Positions 33,779 to 36,667 of a stretch of 64,000 nucleotides of DNA are shown piece by piece (the first letter of the stretch is position 1; each line of letters begins with the position of its first letter). The stretch lies in IMG/VR virus record IMGVR_UViG_3300031760_000017; one strand, given 5' to 3'. Under the pieces are notes generated by a model. The model saw only the letters and a list, made by a program, of their open reading frames with translations. It ran no database searches and was not told where the DNA came from. Source of the stretch: a virus. The position numbers and the translations under genes were made by a program.

Positions 33779-35017
33779 ATGCTTAATAAAAACAATGAAA
33801 GAGAACTTGCTTATGTGGTTATTGTTGATGCAGTAACTCCAATTAAAGGTTATGATAGAGTAGAGCTTGCTCATGTGGGCGGATGGACCGTTGTAGTTGG
33901 AAAAGGCGAGTTCCATGCGGGCGACCCCGCAATTTATTTTGAAATTGATTCTCAGCTTCCTGAGGTAGAGCCATTTACTAATATGGAATTTCTTGCTAAG
34001 AAACATTATAAAATTAAAACACAGAAAATGTGTAAATCTATTTCTCAGGGGCTTCTAATGTCTGCCGCAAATTTTGGATGGAAAAAATCTGCTGAAAATG
34101 CAGGTGACTTTCCATACATCAAGGATAATGAAGGTATTTGTCATTTTACAAATGATGAGTCTCGTTTCCTTACAAAGCAGCTTAATGTAACATACGCCGT
34201 TCCAGAAGATAATGCCCGCAAAGCAAATTCTGTTGATAAATATAAGAAAATGGCACAGCGCAATGGTAAGCTTTTCTCTCATCAGCCGTTTAAATGGCTT
34301 ATGAAAAAAGAGTGGGGAAGAAAACTTCTTTTCACATTCTTTGGTAGCAAAAAGGATAAGACAGGCTGGCCCGCATGGGTAAAAAAGACAGATGAGGAAA
34401 GAATCGAAAATCTTCCATATCTGTTTGAAGATAAGTCTCCTTGGATTGCTACTGAGAAAATTGATGGGACTAGCACAACTTTCACCCTGAAACGCGGAAA
34501 AGGACTCTTTAAGAAAGATGAATTTTATATTTGTTCCCGTAACGTATGTTTCGATAGACCTAATAAAAATTGTTTCTATGAAACAAATGTTTATATTGAA
34601 ATGGCTGAAAAATATAATATTTATAATAAGATGAAGCATCTTCTTGAAACAAAATATAAAGATTGTGAATGGATTACAATTCAGGGTGAGACTTATGGAA
34701 CTGGAATTCAGAAACGTGATTACCATATGACAGAACATAATTTTATGGCTTTTAACCTGATTTCCTCTAAAAATGGAAGAGAAAATTCACTTATTATGAA
34801 AGATATTCTTGAGAAGGAAAATGGTATTCCTTGTGTTCCTATTGTAGCTGACTCTTATACACTTCCGGGCACTCTTGAAGAGCTTCGTGAGTTTGTAGAT
34901 AGTGATACTTCCGTTATTGACGGAGAAATTAGAGAAGGAATTGTATTCCGTTCCACTGACGGTTCTCGTTCTTTTAAATGTGTTTCTCCAACATATCTTA
35001 TGAAATATCATCAGTAA
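33779..35017 (+). CDS. ATP-dependent RNA ligase-family nucleotidyltransferase (KxDG lysine motif) with an N-terminal extension
   Basis: ATEKIDGTSTTF (KxDG adenylation motif) about 230 aa in. First gene of a ligase-kinase-phosphatase cassette. Confidence 0.6.
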   Translation: MLNKNNERELAYVVIVDAVTPIKGYDRVELAHVGGWTVVVGKGEFHAGDPAIYFEIDSQLPEVEPFTNMEFLAKKHYKIKTQKMCKSISQGLLMSAANFGWKKSAENAGDFPYIKDNEGICHFTNDESRFLTKQLNVTYAVPEDNARKANSVDKYKKMAQRNGKLFSHQPFKWLMKKEWGRKLLFTFFGSKKDKTGWPAWVKKTDEERIENLPYLFEDKSPWIATEKIDGTSTTFTLKRGKGLFKKDEFYICSRNVCFDRPNKNCFYETNVYIEMAEKYNIYNKMKHLLETKYKDCEWITIQGETYGTGIQKRDYHMTEHNFMAFNLISSKNGRENSLIMKDILEKENGIPCVPIVADSYTLPGTLEELREFVDSDTSVIDGEIREGIVFRSTDGSRSFKCVSPTYLMKYHQ

Positions 35018-35023
35018 ATTTTA

Positions 35024-35060
35024 AAGGTGAGATAAAAAATCTCACCTTGTTTTTTTTATT
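35024..35060 (+). terminator. rho-independent terminator
   Basis: aaggtgagat-aaaaa-atctcacctt followed by T8. Confidence 0.65.
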
Positions 35061-35110
35061 ATTTTTTGTTATAATATATATAATGAAAAATAAAGAAAGG
35101 ATATAAAAAT

Positions 35111-35365
35111 ATGACGCTTAAAGAATGGCTTAAAAAAATTGATTTAGTAATAGACGTAAAAATTTGGGGAAAAGATGATGAGATACCTCTCTTTGAAGGC
35201 GCAGCTTTTGATATTCCTTGGACTATTATTGATTTTTCAATAGGCAGAATGGAGAATAGCACAGAAGAACCTATTTATATTTGCACTTATAAAAATAAAA
35301 ATAATGTGGTACTTTCAATAATTGTTATTAATGTGATAGAAAAAGAGGAGGATTTTCCATTTTGA
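35111..35365 (+). CDS. hypothetical protein (84 aa)
   Basis: RBS AAGGATATAAAAAT; standard ORF. Confidence 0.4.
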   Translation: MTLKEWLKKIDLVIDVKIWGKDDEIPLFEGAAFDIPWTIIDFSIGRMENSTEEPIYICTYKNKNNVVLSIIVINVIEKEEDFPF

Positions 35366-35646
35366 CAACACAAATTTCAGAAATGTATTGTACTTGCTGT
35401 GGTAAAAAAGGAATATCTATTCCTAGAAAAAATAGTAAATTTAGAAAATCTGGACATTTAAAAAAATTATATTGTATTTATTGCGGAGCTGAAAAAAATC
35501 ATGTTGAAATTCGTCCTATCTATGATGACTATACTTACAAAGATTTCGAACTTGAAATGAAATATAATAATTTTGATTCAGAAGGAAATAGAAAAGAATC
35601 TTATCGAATTTTTAGAGGAAATTTAAAGAAAGCAGGTGTTATATAA
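35362..35646 (+). CDS. zinc-ribbon protein (CxxC...CxxC)
   Basis: YCTCCGKK...LYCIYCGAEKNH. Confidence 0.45.
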   Translation: MTTQISEMYCTCCGKKGISIPRKNSKFRKSGHLKKLYCIYCGAEKNHVEIRPIYDDYTYKDFELEMKYNNFDSEGNRKESYRIFRGNLKKAGVI

Positions 35647-36146
35647 TGGGTGATTTATATATAATGTGTGGCGTTCCTGGCTCTGGCAAATCAACCTTTC
35701 TTAAAAATAGAGTAAAATCAAATAAAGGTGTTATTATTTCTCGTGATAAAATTAGATTTTCTCTTGTCAAACCAGATGAACCTTATTTTTCAAAAGAAAG
35801 AGAAGTTACAAAAACTCTTTGGGATAAAATTAATAAAGAGTTAGCATCTGGAAATACTGTTTTTGTAGACCAAACTTCTCTTACTAGAAAATCTAGAAAA
35901 TGGCTTCTTGACCATATTATTACAAACAATTGTAACCATATTAATTTAATCTGGATAGATGAAAATCTTAAAACATGTTTAGAAAGAAATGAACAAAGAA
36001 AAGGAACTCGTGGTTATGTTCCTAAAGAATCTATTGTTAATATGTATAATAACTTTGAAGAGCCTTCATTAAATGAAGGATTCTATCGAATCTTTAAATA
36101 CAATAGCACAAATGATGAGATAACTTATAAAGGAGTGATTTTATAA
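35646..36146 (+). CDS. polynucleotide 5'-kinase (P-loop, T4 Pnk kinase-domain-like / AAA_33)
   Basis: IMCGVPGSGKSTF Walker A, RDKIR, about 165 aa. Confidence 0.7.
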   Translation: MGDLYIMCGVPGSGKSTFLKNRVKSNKGVIISRDKIRFSLVKPDEPYFSKEREVTKTLWDKINKELASGNTVFVDQTSLTRKSRKWLLDHIITNNCNHINLIWIDENLKTCLERNEQRKGTRGYVPKESIVNMYNNFEEPSLNEGFYRIFKYNSTNDEITYKGVIL

Positions 36147-36667
36147 TGTCAAATATTTGGCTTATTTCAGATACTCATTTTAATCATAATAAAAATTTTA
36201 TTTGGAAGGCTCGCGGCTTTAATTCAGTAGAAGAAATGAATGAAACCATTATTAAAAATTGGAACGATGTGATTCAACCAGATGATGTTGTATATCATCT
36301 TGGTGATGTTATTATGGGCGAGCTTGATGCGGGCATTCCCCTTATAAAAAGACTTAATGGCAAAATTAAACTAGCAATTGGAAATCATGACACAACAATG
36401 CGCCTTGCCGCATTTAAAGAACTTTTTGATGAAATTAATTTTGGATATAGACTTAAAAAAGGTAAAAAAACCTTTCTACTTACTCATTATCCAACTCTAG
36501 TTGATAACTATGATGACCCAGTAAAAGTATATTCTATACATGGTCATACTCATTCATCAAATGCTTTTTGTGACCATCCTTTTATGTATAATGTCAACTG
36601 TGATGCACATAATTGTAAACCAATTCTTTTTGAAGAGGTAATTGAAGACATATACAGTCATAAATAA
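36146..36667 (+). CDS. calcineurin-like metallophosphoesterase (candidate polynucleotide 3'-phosphatase / 2',3'-cyclic phosphodiesterase)
   Basis: LISDTHFNH...GDV...GNHD...HGHTH motifs. Confidence 0.65.
   Translation: MSNIWLISDTHFNHNKNFIWKARGFNSVEEMNETIIKNWNDVIQPDDVVYHLGDVIMGELDAGIPLIKRLNGKIKLAIGNHDTTMRLAAFKELFDEINFGYRLKKGKKTFLLTHYPTLVDNYDDPVKVYSIHGHTHSSNAFCDHPFMYNVNCDAHNCKPILFEEVIEDIYSHK

Follow-up and report, generated by a model that had tools for sequence, protein, structure and literature searches.

The locus lies in a 64,000-nt window (the whole stretch of DNA analysed) from an uncultured gut or rumen phage that is TAG-recoded and tRNA-rich and whose host, on MAG bin labels only, is probably a member of the Bacillota. 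It carries three intact plus-strand open reading frames encoding an RNA ligase (33779-35017), a kinase (35646-36146) and a metallophosphoesterase (MPE; 36146-36667), and family matches bore out all three genes as they had been placed and named in the first-pass annotation. Upstream, a vault-protein-like unit ends at an intrinsic terminator (33280-33317, +; a 14-bp hairpin at 33280-33310, then a T run). A promoter-like site predicted for the ligase unit (33307-33335, +; TTGTTT, 17 nt, TATAAT) is one case of a recurring TTGnnn-17-TATAATATA(T/A) motif sited after terminators. The first gene of this unit, orf56 (33369-33539, +), is a small ORF with a good RBS that is restricted to the nearest relatives and had no family match in Pfam and PHROG profile searches. 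The small conserved orf70 (33550-33762, +) stands just 5' of the ligase; it likewise matched no family, and tblastn found homologues (38-82% identity) immediately ahead of the ligase gene in about 20 related loci.

Directly 3' of the ligase lies a further hairpin (35024-35048) belonging to an intrinsic terminator (35024-35056, +; 10-bp stem with 4 GC pairs, then T8), and this is followed by a second promoter-like site (35047-35075, +; TTGTTT, 17 nt with TGT, TATAAT), again recognised by its sequence. Two relatives (L005 and L010) have an analogous hairpin and T-run after the ligase and keep the same promoter-like sequence. The kinase unit begins with orf84 (35111-35365, +), an ORF also called as a gene on the source contig, which has no family match and has homologues only among closer relatives. 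Next comes a zinc-ribbon protein (35383-35646, +; 87 aa from its ATG, with an alternative TTG start at 35362), which is basic, has a CxxC-x26-CxxC arrangement and matches phrog_1257 (3e-12), with no match in the PDB or among deposited phages. Its stop codon overlaps the kinase ATG, and a zinc ribbon is found directly 5' of the kinase in 32 of 51 loci. The unit ends, ahead of a holin gene, at an intrinsic terminator (36707-36748, +; a 15-bp hairpin at 36707-36740, then a T run). The earlier proposal of a single transcription unit between terminators therefore stands for the flanking hairpins only: the internal terminator and promoter-like site predict two units, one for the ligase and one for the kinase, and the two ORFs between these genes, orf84 and the zinc-ribbon protein, had been overlooked.

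The ligase (412 aa) is an Rnl5/DRB0094-family ATP-dependent RNA ligase by Pfam, PDB, NCBIfam and Foldseek comparison, and among solved structures it is closest to NgrRnl, the nick-sealing ligase of Naegleria, not to T4 Rnl1. It comprises an OB domain (residues about 8-100), a clade-specific insertion (about 101-196) and a nucleotidyltransferase domain (197-412), in which K227-I-D-G forms the KxDG motif, and it matches both RNA_ligase (PF09414, 1.2e-19) and the PHA02142 OB domain (PF21189, 7.9e-19). The N-terminal extension of about 200 aa, previously put down as of unknown function, is thus accounted for by the Rnl5 OB domain (residues 11-94) and then the basic, helical insertion, which is common only to a metagenomic phage clade. 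NgrRnl was the best PDB sequence match (3e-24, in two collinear segments), and TIGR02306 was the best NCBIfam match (3e-31), although its score of 108.5 bits falls under the curated equivalog cut-off of 151.15. When the AF2 model (mean pLDDT 73.8) was searched with Foldseek, the top 13 hits were NgrRnl over the whole length, with Rnl2-type ligases next. Residues R8, D57, R208, K227, D229, S253-R254, E304, E386 and K400 are invariant among homologues down to 33% identity, and equivalents of NgrRnl R4, D53, R149, K170, D172, E227, E312 and K326 (PMC7261155) were all found in the phage enzyme. A T4 Rnl1-type ligase was ruled out by the missing Rnl1 Pfam match and by the absence of T4 Rnl1 from the top 50 Foldseek hits, and the RNA-ligase family matches rule out a DNA ligase or capping enzyme. 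Characterised Rnl5 members seal duplex nicks whose 3'-OH strand is RNA and act only feebly on single-stranded ends (PMC4408790); resealing of anticodon loops in the manner of Rnl1 is therefore not what would be predicted for this enzyme. The physiological role of Rnl5 has been described as uncharted, and the only genetics available, from D. radiodurans, ties it to ionising radiation recovery and genome reassembly (PMC5397189).

The kinase (166 aa, +) belongs, as judged from its sequence, to the Pnk/PSTK clade of P-loop 5'-kinases, and its nearest relatives are polynucleotide and tRNA kinases. It matches AAA_33 (2e-20), KTI12, the phrog_505 'polynucleotide kinase' family (7e-25) and TIGR04075 bacter_Pnkp (2e-11), as well as the PDB entries for PSTK (2e-8), the C. 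thermocellum Pnkp kinase (5e-7), Pnkp1 (2e-4) and T4 Pnk (3e-3); phage genes labelled polynucleotide kinase also match it in tblastn. Its key residues are K15, S16, D34, R37, D75 and R114/R118/R122, and its P-loop, RDxxR motif and lid arginines line up with those of the C. thermocellum Pnkp kinase and PSTK. The MPE (173 aa, +) is a binuclear metallophosphoesterase of the aq_1665 type (Metallophos_2, 8e-9; phrog_547, 1.5e-46; PDB 1xm7, 3e-10), with complete metal-binding motifs (D9, H11, D54, N80-H81, H114, H134 and H136), and is not of the DxDxT HAD phosphatase type. It carries the GNH histidine that has been cited as a determinant of 2',3'-cyclic phosphodiesterase activity (PMC3675462), and we propose that it would act as a 2',3'-cyclic-phosphate/3'-phosphate end-healing enzyme. 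Kinase and phosphatase are indeed separate genes, as had been reported, with the kinase stop codon and the MPE ATG overlapping by one base. Orthologous kinase-MPE single polypeptides occur in at least five other clusters formed at 50% identity (P0123, P0129, P0134, P0148 and P0218), the fused P0123 protein being 46% identical to the kinase and 56% to the MPE. Because of these fusions and the one-base overlap, we read the pair as a split Pnkp-like end-healing enzyme.

The association extends to related phages. Rnl5 is followed, on the same strand and within 4.5 kb, by a kinase gene in 47 of 51 related loci, at variable spacing and over a range of 41-97% ligase identity; common ancestry could account for much of this synteny. 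Distant loci have no MPE after the kinase, which is fused there to an HD phosphohydrolase, an in-place displacement of the phosphoesterase partner. Genes for RlaP (an RNA-ligase-associated Pol-beta nucleotidyltransferase) and a Thg1-like protein (tRNA 5'-end repair) adjoin Rnl5 in many sister loci and MAG contigs, with none of either in the window or the tRNA-array part of the contig, and in Microbacterium phages the Rnl5 gene sits within a tRNA gene array. A second, lambda-phosphatase-type MPE is encoded upstream (27464-28210, +; PDB 1g5b, 1.8e-6; GDxxDRG and GNHE motifs). It matches the phosphatase segment of the kinase-phosphatase-ligase profile phrog_8238, and its homologues lie between Rnl5 and the kinase in two loci (L033 and L068) and beside the Thg1-like gene in others (L049-L055); it is possibly a second end-healing enzyme of an extended module. 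Between it and the ligase unit are genes for a flotillin-like SPFH protein (28277-29851, +; Pfam Band_7), a (p)ppApp-hydrolase-like HD hydrolase (29946-30371, +) and a major-vault-protein-like protein (30774-33263, +; Pfam MVP_shoulder and Vault_3; PDB MVP, 1.7e-11). Of 58 loci, 13 have SPFH- or MVP-like genes no further than 6 kb from Rnl5, though not always in the same place, and in L004 and L043 an RlaP gene stands where the HD gene is here, so these proteins may be scaffold or accessory neighbours of the cassette. SPFH/Band-7 scaffolds are also found in RNA-repair gene neighbourhoods, phage and cellular examples of which were reportedly the subject of comparative genomics by Burroughs and Aravind in 2016.

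The tRNA genes of the window (396-1395) are the tail end of a 24-tRNA array on the same contig, giving a set of at least 24 tRNAs. The cassette had been described as lying alongside this set, which holds for the genome and contig; the two are, however, about 32 kb apart. The array includes a CTA amber suppressor tRNA, required for the late genes, in which TAG-to-Gln recoding is clear. In contrast to these late genes, no cassette or replication gene contains an in-frame TAG, and the cassette is therefore translatable ahead of the code switch.

Taken together, the block probably encodes a three-step pathway that would heal and seal broken RNA, most likely as counter-defence. In such a pathway, the MPE would strip the 3'-phosphate or 2',3'-cyclic phosphate that cleavage by metal-independent RNases produces, perhaps assisted by the lambda-type MPE at 27464; the kinase, going by its family and catalytic residues, would phosphorylate the 5'-OH end; and the ligase, given its family and full set of catalytic residues, would self-adenylylate at K227 and seal the 3'-OH/5'-PO4 break. 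Since characterised Rnl5 enzymes need a base-paired nick whose 3'-OH side is RNA, the ligase would be expected to prefer a helix-held break, such as one in a tRNA or rRNA stem or a splinted break, rather than the open anticodon loop resealed by T4 Rnl1. The purpose may be to restore tRNAs or other translation RNAs, host or phage-encoded, after cuts by host ribonuclease defences or toxins. More speculatively, RNA binding or targeting may fall to the zinc-ribbon protein and the ligase's basic insertion. An RNA or tRNA role is supported by the conserved linkage, the kinase-MPE fusions and the RlaP and Thg1-like neighbours in sister phages.

The same enzymology might instead mature or maintain the tRNAs that the phage itself encodes; the long, G+C-richer, ORF-free spacers of the array could be where self-cleaving ribozymes or metal-independent RNases generate the ends. 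Cleavage by HDV-like ribozymes gives an upstream product with a 2',3'-cyclic phosphate, which would suit such a scheme, as would the suppressor-bearing array itself, the clear recoding and the tRNA-repair neighbours in sister phages. Moreover, 54.5% of phage genomes that contain theta ribozymes have a DRB0094-family ligase, which amounts to a 140-fold enrichment, and the CCA-adding enzyme is likewise enriched (PMC10879173). However, a descriptor-like search built from published examples, run at strict and relaxed settings, and Rfam found no theta or HDV-like ribozyme in the window or tRNA array, plain 3'-trailer removal requires no ligase, and the array is remote from the cassette; we regard this explanation as unlikely. 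Slightly less likely again is an action on DNA or RNA:DNA hybrids in phage replication, recombination or repair, in which the kinase and MPE would clean 5'-OH/3'-phosphate DNA ends, as T4 and mammalian PNKP can, and Rnl5 would seal nicks with ribonucleotides ending the 3'-OH side. Rnl5 enzymes do tolerate DNA as the 5'-PO4 strand and as template (PMC5397189, PMC4408790), and loss of DraRnl slows genome reassembly after irradiation (PMC5397189); genes for RNase H, topoisomerase II, an NAD-ligase, DnaB and a RecJ-like protein lie a few kb downstream of the cassette, and in Bacillus phage B5S an MPE-family gene adjoins helicase, exonuclease and SbcCD-like genes. Yet for DNA nicks the phage has an NAD-dependent DNA ligase of its own, a lysis cassette and terminators part the block from the replication module, the recurrent RlaP and Thg1-like neighbours are RNA-specific, and the kinase is closest to RNA and tRNA kinases.

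It is also conceivable, though improbable, that these are neighbours without a common pathway and that the ligase acts alone, the MPE degrading nucleotide second messengers or other small phosphoesters and the kinase acting on nucleotides or, as a 5-hydroxymethyl-dU DNA kinase, on DNA. The aq_1665-type MPE family is indeed very widespread among phages (1542 records), usually without an adjacent RNA ligase, and the upstream accessory genes, including the (p)ppApp-hydrolase-like HD protein, could mark the region as an assortment of counter-defence genes. The kinase also matches the 5-hmdU DNA kinase family (PF18748), but weakly (E 0.0046, with no stretch significant alone), and its AAA_33 and Pnk matches are far stronger. 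Independent kinase-MPE fusions in five clusters, the one-base gene overlap, the recurrence of the kinase after Rnl5 and, in distant relatives, the fusion of this kinase to an HD domain in place of the MPE all argue against unconnected neighbours.

RNA repair by a kinase, a phosphoesterase and an ATP-dependent ligase is an established phage theme, in which the ligases are mainly Rnl1 and Rnl2, and Thg1 and Rot/TROVE proteins also occur in RNA-repair neighbourhoods identified by comparative genomics (Iyer et al. 2021, PMC7824862). Phage Rnl5 members have been known since 2007 (PMC1807946); in the literature searched we found no description of Rnl5 with a zinc ribbon and a split kinase/aq_1665-type MPE in TAG-recoded phages. 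Like DraRnl and NgrRnl, the phage ligase starts with an OB domain and continues into a nucleotidyltransferase domain, which stops soon after motif V, but it is only about 23% identical to NgrRnl and exceeds it by 70 aa because of a variable hairpin and the basic helical insertion of about 55 aa. In D. radiodurans, a 5'-OH polynucleotide kinase (DR_B0098) is encoded near the ligase on the same megaplasmid (PMC5397189), although the ligase's partner there is a DEDDh-like protein rather than a zinc ribbon, kinase and MPE.

The first-pass annotation had likened the cassette to T4 Pnkp and Rnl1, and this holds for the chemistry: both phages encode a 5'-kinase, a 3'-end phosphoesterase and an ATP-dependent RNA ligase, and the two kinases share a P-loop clade and an Asp/Arg motif. 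It does not extend to the parts, since the ligase here is an Rnl5 enzyme, for which a duplex nick is the predicted requirement and not a break in an anticodon loop (PMC4408790), and the phosphatase is a separate-gene binuclear MPE whereas that of T4 is a DxDxT HAD domain fused to the kinase. The Clostridium thermocellum Pnkp/Hen1 system likewise combines a P-loop kinase, whose domain aligns with the phage kinase, a Mn-type binuclear MPE and an ATP-dependent ligase (PMC3675462, PMC2190708). There, however, the activities reside in one polypeptide rather than three genes in two units, the MPE is of the lambda-phosphatase type rather than aq_1665-type (the phage's lambda-type MPE being 5.5 kb upstream) and the ligase is Rnl4 rather than Rnl5; the neighbours examined included no Hen1 methyltransferase. 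A further parallel is with recoded gut phages in which theta ribozymes are linked to tRNAs (Kienbeck et al. 2024, PMC10879173): this phage, too, is of the gut type, recodes TAG to Gln and carries a DRB0094-family ligase together with a suppressor tRNA and a large tRNA array, but it differs in having no detectable theta ribozyme. An aminoacylation-like role was suggested for the ligase in that study (PMC10879173), whereas a neighbourhood with kinase, phosphoesterase, RlaP and Thg1 genes speaks for the healing and sealing of ends. The cassette thus represents a known kind of RNA-break repair kit, assembled from unusual parts in place of the T4 Rnl1/Pnkp set.

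The three enzymes named by the first-pass annotation are indeed present, each with a significant family match, and this core observation stands. They lie among seven tightly packed plus-strand ORFs within 33369-36667. Two of these, orf56 (33369-33539) and orf70 (33550-33762), precede the 412-aa ligase (33779-35017), which is followed by orf84 (35111-35365), a zinc-ribbon protein (35383-35646, or from a TTG at 35362), the 166-aa P-loop kinase (35646-36146) and the 173-aa metallophosphoesterase (MPE; 36146-36667). The source record, a metagenome contig of 84 kb in ENA, has identical gene calls. 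The genes had been taken for one transcription unit. However, strong intrinsic terminators lie on the plus strand at 33280-33310, 35024-35048 and 36707-36740 (12 terminator-like sites in the region versus 4.2 expected), and the one at 35024-35048 is directly 3' of the ligase stop codon, followed by TTGTTT-17 nt-(TGT)TATAAT. This promoter-like motif, TTGnnn-17-TATAATATA(T/A), is repeated 3' of terminators across the plus-strand early region, and the related phage loci L005 and L010 keep the same hairpin/T-run/promoter junction 3' of the ligase. There are thus two adjacent units, each with its own predicted promoter. Overlapping codons join the last three genes of the second unit: the stop of the zinc ribbon with the start of the kinase, and the stop of the kinase with the start of the MPE, where one base is shared (36146). 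This suggests that they are translationally coupled. A megablast search of 33300-37100 against deposited phages gave no match, leaving us without a close cultured relative to use; for the zinc-ribbon protein, tblastn found no counterpart in deposited phages, and the PDB gave no meaningful match.

Judged by its sequence and its predicted structure, the ligase is a member of the Rnl5 (DraRnl/NgrRnl) family, and not of the Rnl1 type as previously proposed. Pfam matches at E <= 0.1 were confined to the PHA02142 OB-fold (PF21189; residues 11-94, E 7.9e-19) and RNA_ligase (PF09414; residues 221-402). The best solved relative in a PDB sequence search was the Naegleria gruberi ligase NgrRnl (E 3e-24), which matched in two collinear pieces, an OB domain at 8-100 (NgrRnl 5-103) and a nucleotidyltransferase (NTase) domain at 197-410. 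What had been described as a ~200-aa N-terminal extension of unknown function therefore carries the OB domain, the defining N-terminal module of Rnl5. The best NCBIfam model was TIGR02306 (DRB0094 RNA ligase), and since the score of 108.5 bits is under the equivalog cut-off of 151.15, the protein is a divergent family member. An AlphaFold model (mean pLDDT 73.8; ~90 in the NTase domain, poor in the linker and parts of the OB domain) had NgrRnl, at full length, as its top 13 Foldseek matches (E 3e-17), followed by Rnl2-type and Rnl3-type ligases; the T4 Rnl1 structure was not among the top 50.

The residues through which NgrRnl contacts ATP and two metals (PMC7261155) have equivalents in R8, D57, R208, K227, D229, E304, E386 and K400, and all of these, together with motif Ia (S253-R254), are invariant across 28 close and 9 distant homologues, down to 33% identity. 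The position of NgrRnl K121, which with R4 and D53 (aligned with R8 and D57) forms the OB-domain set that engages the ATP gamma phosphate and second metal, falls in the unaligned, insertion-bearing linker. The insertion (~101-196) comprises a variable hairpin and a basic helical segment of ~55 aa that is common to the metagenomic clade and absent from the homologues in Pseudomonas, Synechococcus and Microbacterium phages. Beyond motif V the ligase ends shortly after K400, without a C-terminal domain, as is usual in Rnl5 (~10-30 aa after motif V). Phage homologues of Rnl5 have been known since 2007 (PMC1807946). Characterised members act on duplexes, in which they close 3'-OH/5'-PO4 nicks whose 3'-OH side is RNA; their activity on single-stranded RNA is feeble, and breaks in loops are left to Rnl1 and Rnl4 (PMC4408790, PMC5397189). 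Nick sealing by this family is Mn-dependent.

The kinase carries a P-loop (G9-VPGSGKS16), an RDxxR motif (D34, R37) and lid arginines R114, R118 and R122. It aligns with archaeal PSTK, the kinase domain of C. thermocellum Pnkp (CthPnkp) and Pnkp1, and weakly with T4 Pnk (E 0.003-0.008). Its PHROG and tblastn matches are phage polynucleotide kinases, including T4-like PseT and Bacillus-phage genes that adjoin genes annotated as tRNA ligase. No further domain was detected in its 166 residues, and against TIGR04075, the bacterial Pnkp model, it reached 42.6 bits (cut-off 750) with only the kinase part covered. A reading as a 5-hmdU DNA kinase was rejected, because the matches to the Pnk clade are strong and the Pfam match behind this reading is partial and weak. 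The MPE carries all binuclear motifs (D9-x-H11, G53-D54, G79-N80-H81-D82, H114 and G133-H134-x-H136), among which the phosphate-binding GNH histidine is relevant to a candidate 2',3'-cyclic phosphodiesterase (PMC3675462). C. thermocellum Pnkp and lambda phosphatase provide the precedent for RNA 2',3'-cyclic phosphodiesterase/phosphatase activity in a binuclear MPE (PMC2190708, PMC3675462). In the PDB search, the best solved relative of the phage protein was the uncharacterised Aquifex aq_1665 and not lambda phosphatase. This family is very common in phages (1542 records) and mostly not beside an RNA ligase, so that family membership alone tells little.

The combinations in which the two proteins occur are more specific. 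In an exhaustive search, five clusters at 50% identity (P0123, P0129, P0134, P0148 and P0218) proved to combine an AAA_33 kinase and this MPE (Metallophos) in one polypeptide of 341-348 aa; P0123 shares 46% identity with the kinase and 56% with the MPE. Eight distant loci instead join the orthologous kinase to an HD phosphohydrolase domain, in which the H..HD..H..H..D motifs align. The kinase thus stays in place while its partner is swapped between an MPE gene, an MPE fusion and an HD fusion, a pattern expected of a Pnkp-like end-healing enzyme. We regard this genetic evidence as decisive that kinase and MPE are one functional Pnkp-like unit, with predicted activities. Outside the window, a further relative of the aq_1665-type phosphoesterases (P0199, 502 aa) is fused to a TatD-family nuclease domain, another nucleic-acid-related partner for these proteins.

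Linkage was examined in 58 IMG/VR loci that encode a homologue of the ligase (33-97% identity); 51 of these loci have at least 3 kb of downstream sequence. A kinase homologue lies within 4.5 kb downstream on the same strand in 47 of the 51 (spacing 15 to 3234 nt), the MPE is found in 36 and the zinc-ribbon gene in 32. Several loci hold further enzymes. Those numbered L049-L055 show a row of Rnl5, RlaP (PF10127), kinase-HD, Thg1-like (PF04446, 1e-29), lambda-type MPE and RecJ-like protein; RlaP is also beside Rnl5 in L004/L043, L007, L009, L021, L033, L038, L046 and L059, and a Thg1-like gene is present in L017, L021 and L048. On the MAG contig L068 the order is Thg1-like, HD, RlaP, Rnl5, lambda-MPE, zinc ribbon, kinase. 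In Microbacterium phages the Rnl5 gene sits within a tRNA gene array. Neither RlaP nor Thg1-like genes were found in the window or the upstream part of the contig; where they do accompany Rnl5, their predicted functions are hard to explain by anything other than RNA or tRNA repair. Phages are already known to repair RNA with ATP-dependent ligases together with polynucleotide kinases and phosphoesterases, and RlaP, Thg1 and Rot/TROVE proteins also take part (PMC7824862). As to the host, the MAG bin labels of six related contigs are within Bacillota (Ruminococcus, Lachnospira, Clostridia, Bacillales), although these may be mis-binned phage contigs.

The cassette is located in an accessory stretch that also encodes a lambda-phosphatase-type MPE (27464-28210; homologues lie within the cluster in L033 and L068), a flotillin-like SPFH protein, a (p)ppApp-hydrolase-like HD protein and a vault-protein homologue, and which directly precedes the lysis genes and replication module. 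The homologue of the eukaryotic major vault protein (30774-33263, plus strand; 829 aa with one TAG read through) matches Pfam MVP_shoulder (3.9e-23) and Vault_3, and PDB matches to MVP are collinear over ~290 residues. Its gene adjoins that of the SPFH protein (28277-29851, plus strand). SPFH- or MVP-like genes occur within 6 kb of Rnl5 in 13 of the 58 related loci, at differing positions, and Burroughs and Aravind reportedly described SPFH scaffolds in RNA-repair gene neighbourhoods in 2016. For the small HD protein (29946-30371, plus strand) the only solved relative is the (p)ppApp hydrolase 7smg (E 4.5e-5); a role as RNA phosphatase was discarded on this resemblance, and the protein may serve counter-defence by degrading alarmones. 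The relatives L004 and L043 have an RlaP nucleotidyltransferase gene at this position instead. Between the HD and vault-like genes, two similar hydrophobic ORFs of ~45 aa each (...LITWSWWAVLWPLW... / ...LINWSWSATLWPLW...) stand in tandem on the plus strand at 30388-30520 and 30553-30700. These two small membrane ORFs occupy 30372-30700, a region we rejected as structured RNA (folding z = -0.5). Elsewhere, the source record shows a GIY-YIG homing-endonuclease-like gene together with a small, free-standing DNA_gyraseB_C fragment (42712-43452 and 43973-44272, plus strand) between a topoisomerase II large-subunit gene and a gyrA-like gene, which suggests that a topoisomerase gene has been split or invaded.

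The phage tRNA set does not lie alongside the cassette as had been supposed: of 24 tRNA genes on the contig only the last four are in the window, and the suppressor with a CTA anticodon (3536-3609 of the contig piece L067) is in the array upstream of it. The phage reassigns TAG, leaving TAA and TGA as its only stops. In-frame TAGs are read through in the tape-measure gene (71 TAGs; 18612-27263, minus strand) and in the endolysin gene (14 TAGs; 37098-39383, plus strand), and the peptidoglycan (PG)-binding repeats of the endolysin (DGDFG*NTLK versus DGDFGQNTLK) identify TAG as Gln. Many late genes carry TAGs; early and replication genes have none in frame. The cassette genes are all TAG-free and preceded by predicted sigma-70-type promoters, which fits their expression before the code switch. 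Two further genes bear on recoding: a holin ORF (36764) ends at a TAG where the source record call is 7 codons longer, and a tyrosine-integrase-family gene from Pfam calls on the source contig (7690-8703, minus strand) has 10 in-frame TAG codons, so the phage may be temperate with an integrase translated only in the recoded state. Directly after the last tRNA gene is a 507-aa DUF2828/DUF7788 protein (1491-3014, plus strand; phrog_850, 'RNA-binding protein'), for which a Ro/TROVE label was dropped in view of no PDB sequence match. Spacers in the array are long, ORF-free and relatively G+C-rich (window 274-387, 480-950 and 1040-1160, and between the L067 tRNAs), without an Rfam family or theta-ribozyme motif; the array also holds two sub-threshold tRNA-like pieces (20.7 and 25.6 bits) and a 'CATATACAGCAAATT' element shared by positions ~268 and ~1246.

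What, then, might such a cassette do? The MPE would strip a 2',3'-cyclic or 3'-phosphate from the broken RNA end, the kinase would supply a 5'-phosphate, and Rnl5 would close the break in a base-paired context. We consider it probable that the three enzymes, whose activities are all predicted, heal and seal RNA in this way, most likely for counter-defence and with tRNA or other RNAs of translation as substrates. The enzymatic logic of the earlier RNA-repair claim is therefore retained, with the ligase family, N-terminus, operon structure and tRNA proximity revised. A role for the ligase in sealing DNA is weakened, since the phage encodes its own NAD-dependent DNA ligase. The cassette could alternatively serve tRNA maturation. 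Cleavage by HDV-like ribozymes leaves a 2',3'-cyclic phosphate on tRNA, and we therefore searched the contig for theta/HDV-like ribozymes. A pattern built from published examples, strict or relaxed, gave no match beside the tRNAs in the window and the tRNA array, and Rfam at gathering and E-value thresholds returned tRNAs only. The ribozyme link is thus not supported for this contig, and maturation stays a rival to repair and not the lead. In other phages, 54.5% of the recoded gut phages that contain theta ribozymes have genes for 'RNA ligase, DRB0094 family'. For this enrichment, 140-fold, Kienbeck et al. speculated on aminoacylation (PMC10879173); end-healing and sealing would be the more chemically plausible explanation.

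A more ambitious version of repair, which we think unlikely, would make the cassette the core of a phage RNA-repair island. Ends would be prepared by a zinc-ribbon adaptor and a new Pnkp type, whose kinase and aq_1665-type MPE are two proteins here and one in the fusions, for an insertion-bearing Rnl5 that seals helical tRNA breaks; sister phages add RlaP and Thg1-like enzymes, and SPFH and vault-like proteins may be scaffolds. The clients would be the 24 tRNAs of the phage itself, among them the amber suppressor, and tRNA repair or maturation would be a precondition for the TAG-to-Gln switch to late genes. If true, this would be the first dedicated biological pathway for the orphan Rnl5 family, well characterised in structure and biochemistry, with a physiological role called uncharted. 

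The large gut/rumen phage clade, with its persistent linkage of Rnl5 to a 5'-kinase, to interchangeable phosphoesterases (MPE or HD) and to RlaP and Thg1-like proteins, offers a natural system for asking whether Rnl5 serves RNA, and specifically tRNA, repair. The predicted kinase/aq_1665-type MPE architecture has not been characterised before, and a Pnkp-like role would give a first function to a phosphoesterase family found in >1500 deposited phage genomes.

To conclude, the cassette differs from known systems in its parts. The main phage RNA ligase families named to date are Rnl1 and Rnl2 (PMC7824862). T4 Rnl1 has a C-terminal domain that confers tRNA-loop specificity, whereas the phage ligase has no Rnl1 family match. 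The kinase shares with T4-type Pnkp the P-loop GxxGxGKS, the general-base Asp and Arg (RDxxR) and the lid arginines; T4-type Pnkp, however, has a C-terminal DxDxT (HAD) 3'-phosphatase fused to its kinase, whereas here a separate downstream gene encodes a metallophosphoesterase. Bacterial Pnkp joins kinase, lambda-phosphatase-like MPE and Rnl4 ligase in one polypeptide, whereas the phage has separate genes, with an Rnl5 ligase and an aq_1665-type MPE. Hen1, the partner of bacterial Pnkp, is a 2'-O-methyltransferase, and no methyltransferase was seen among the ~40 window proteins scanned. A phage RNA-repair module is in general an expected kind of system; what is notable is the persistent pairing of Rnl5 with end-healing enzymes, the predicted kinase/aq_1665-MPE type of Pnkp and its conserved zinc-ribbon partner.
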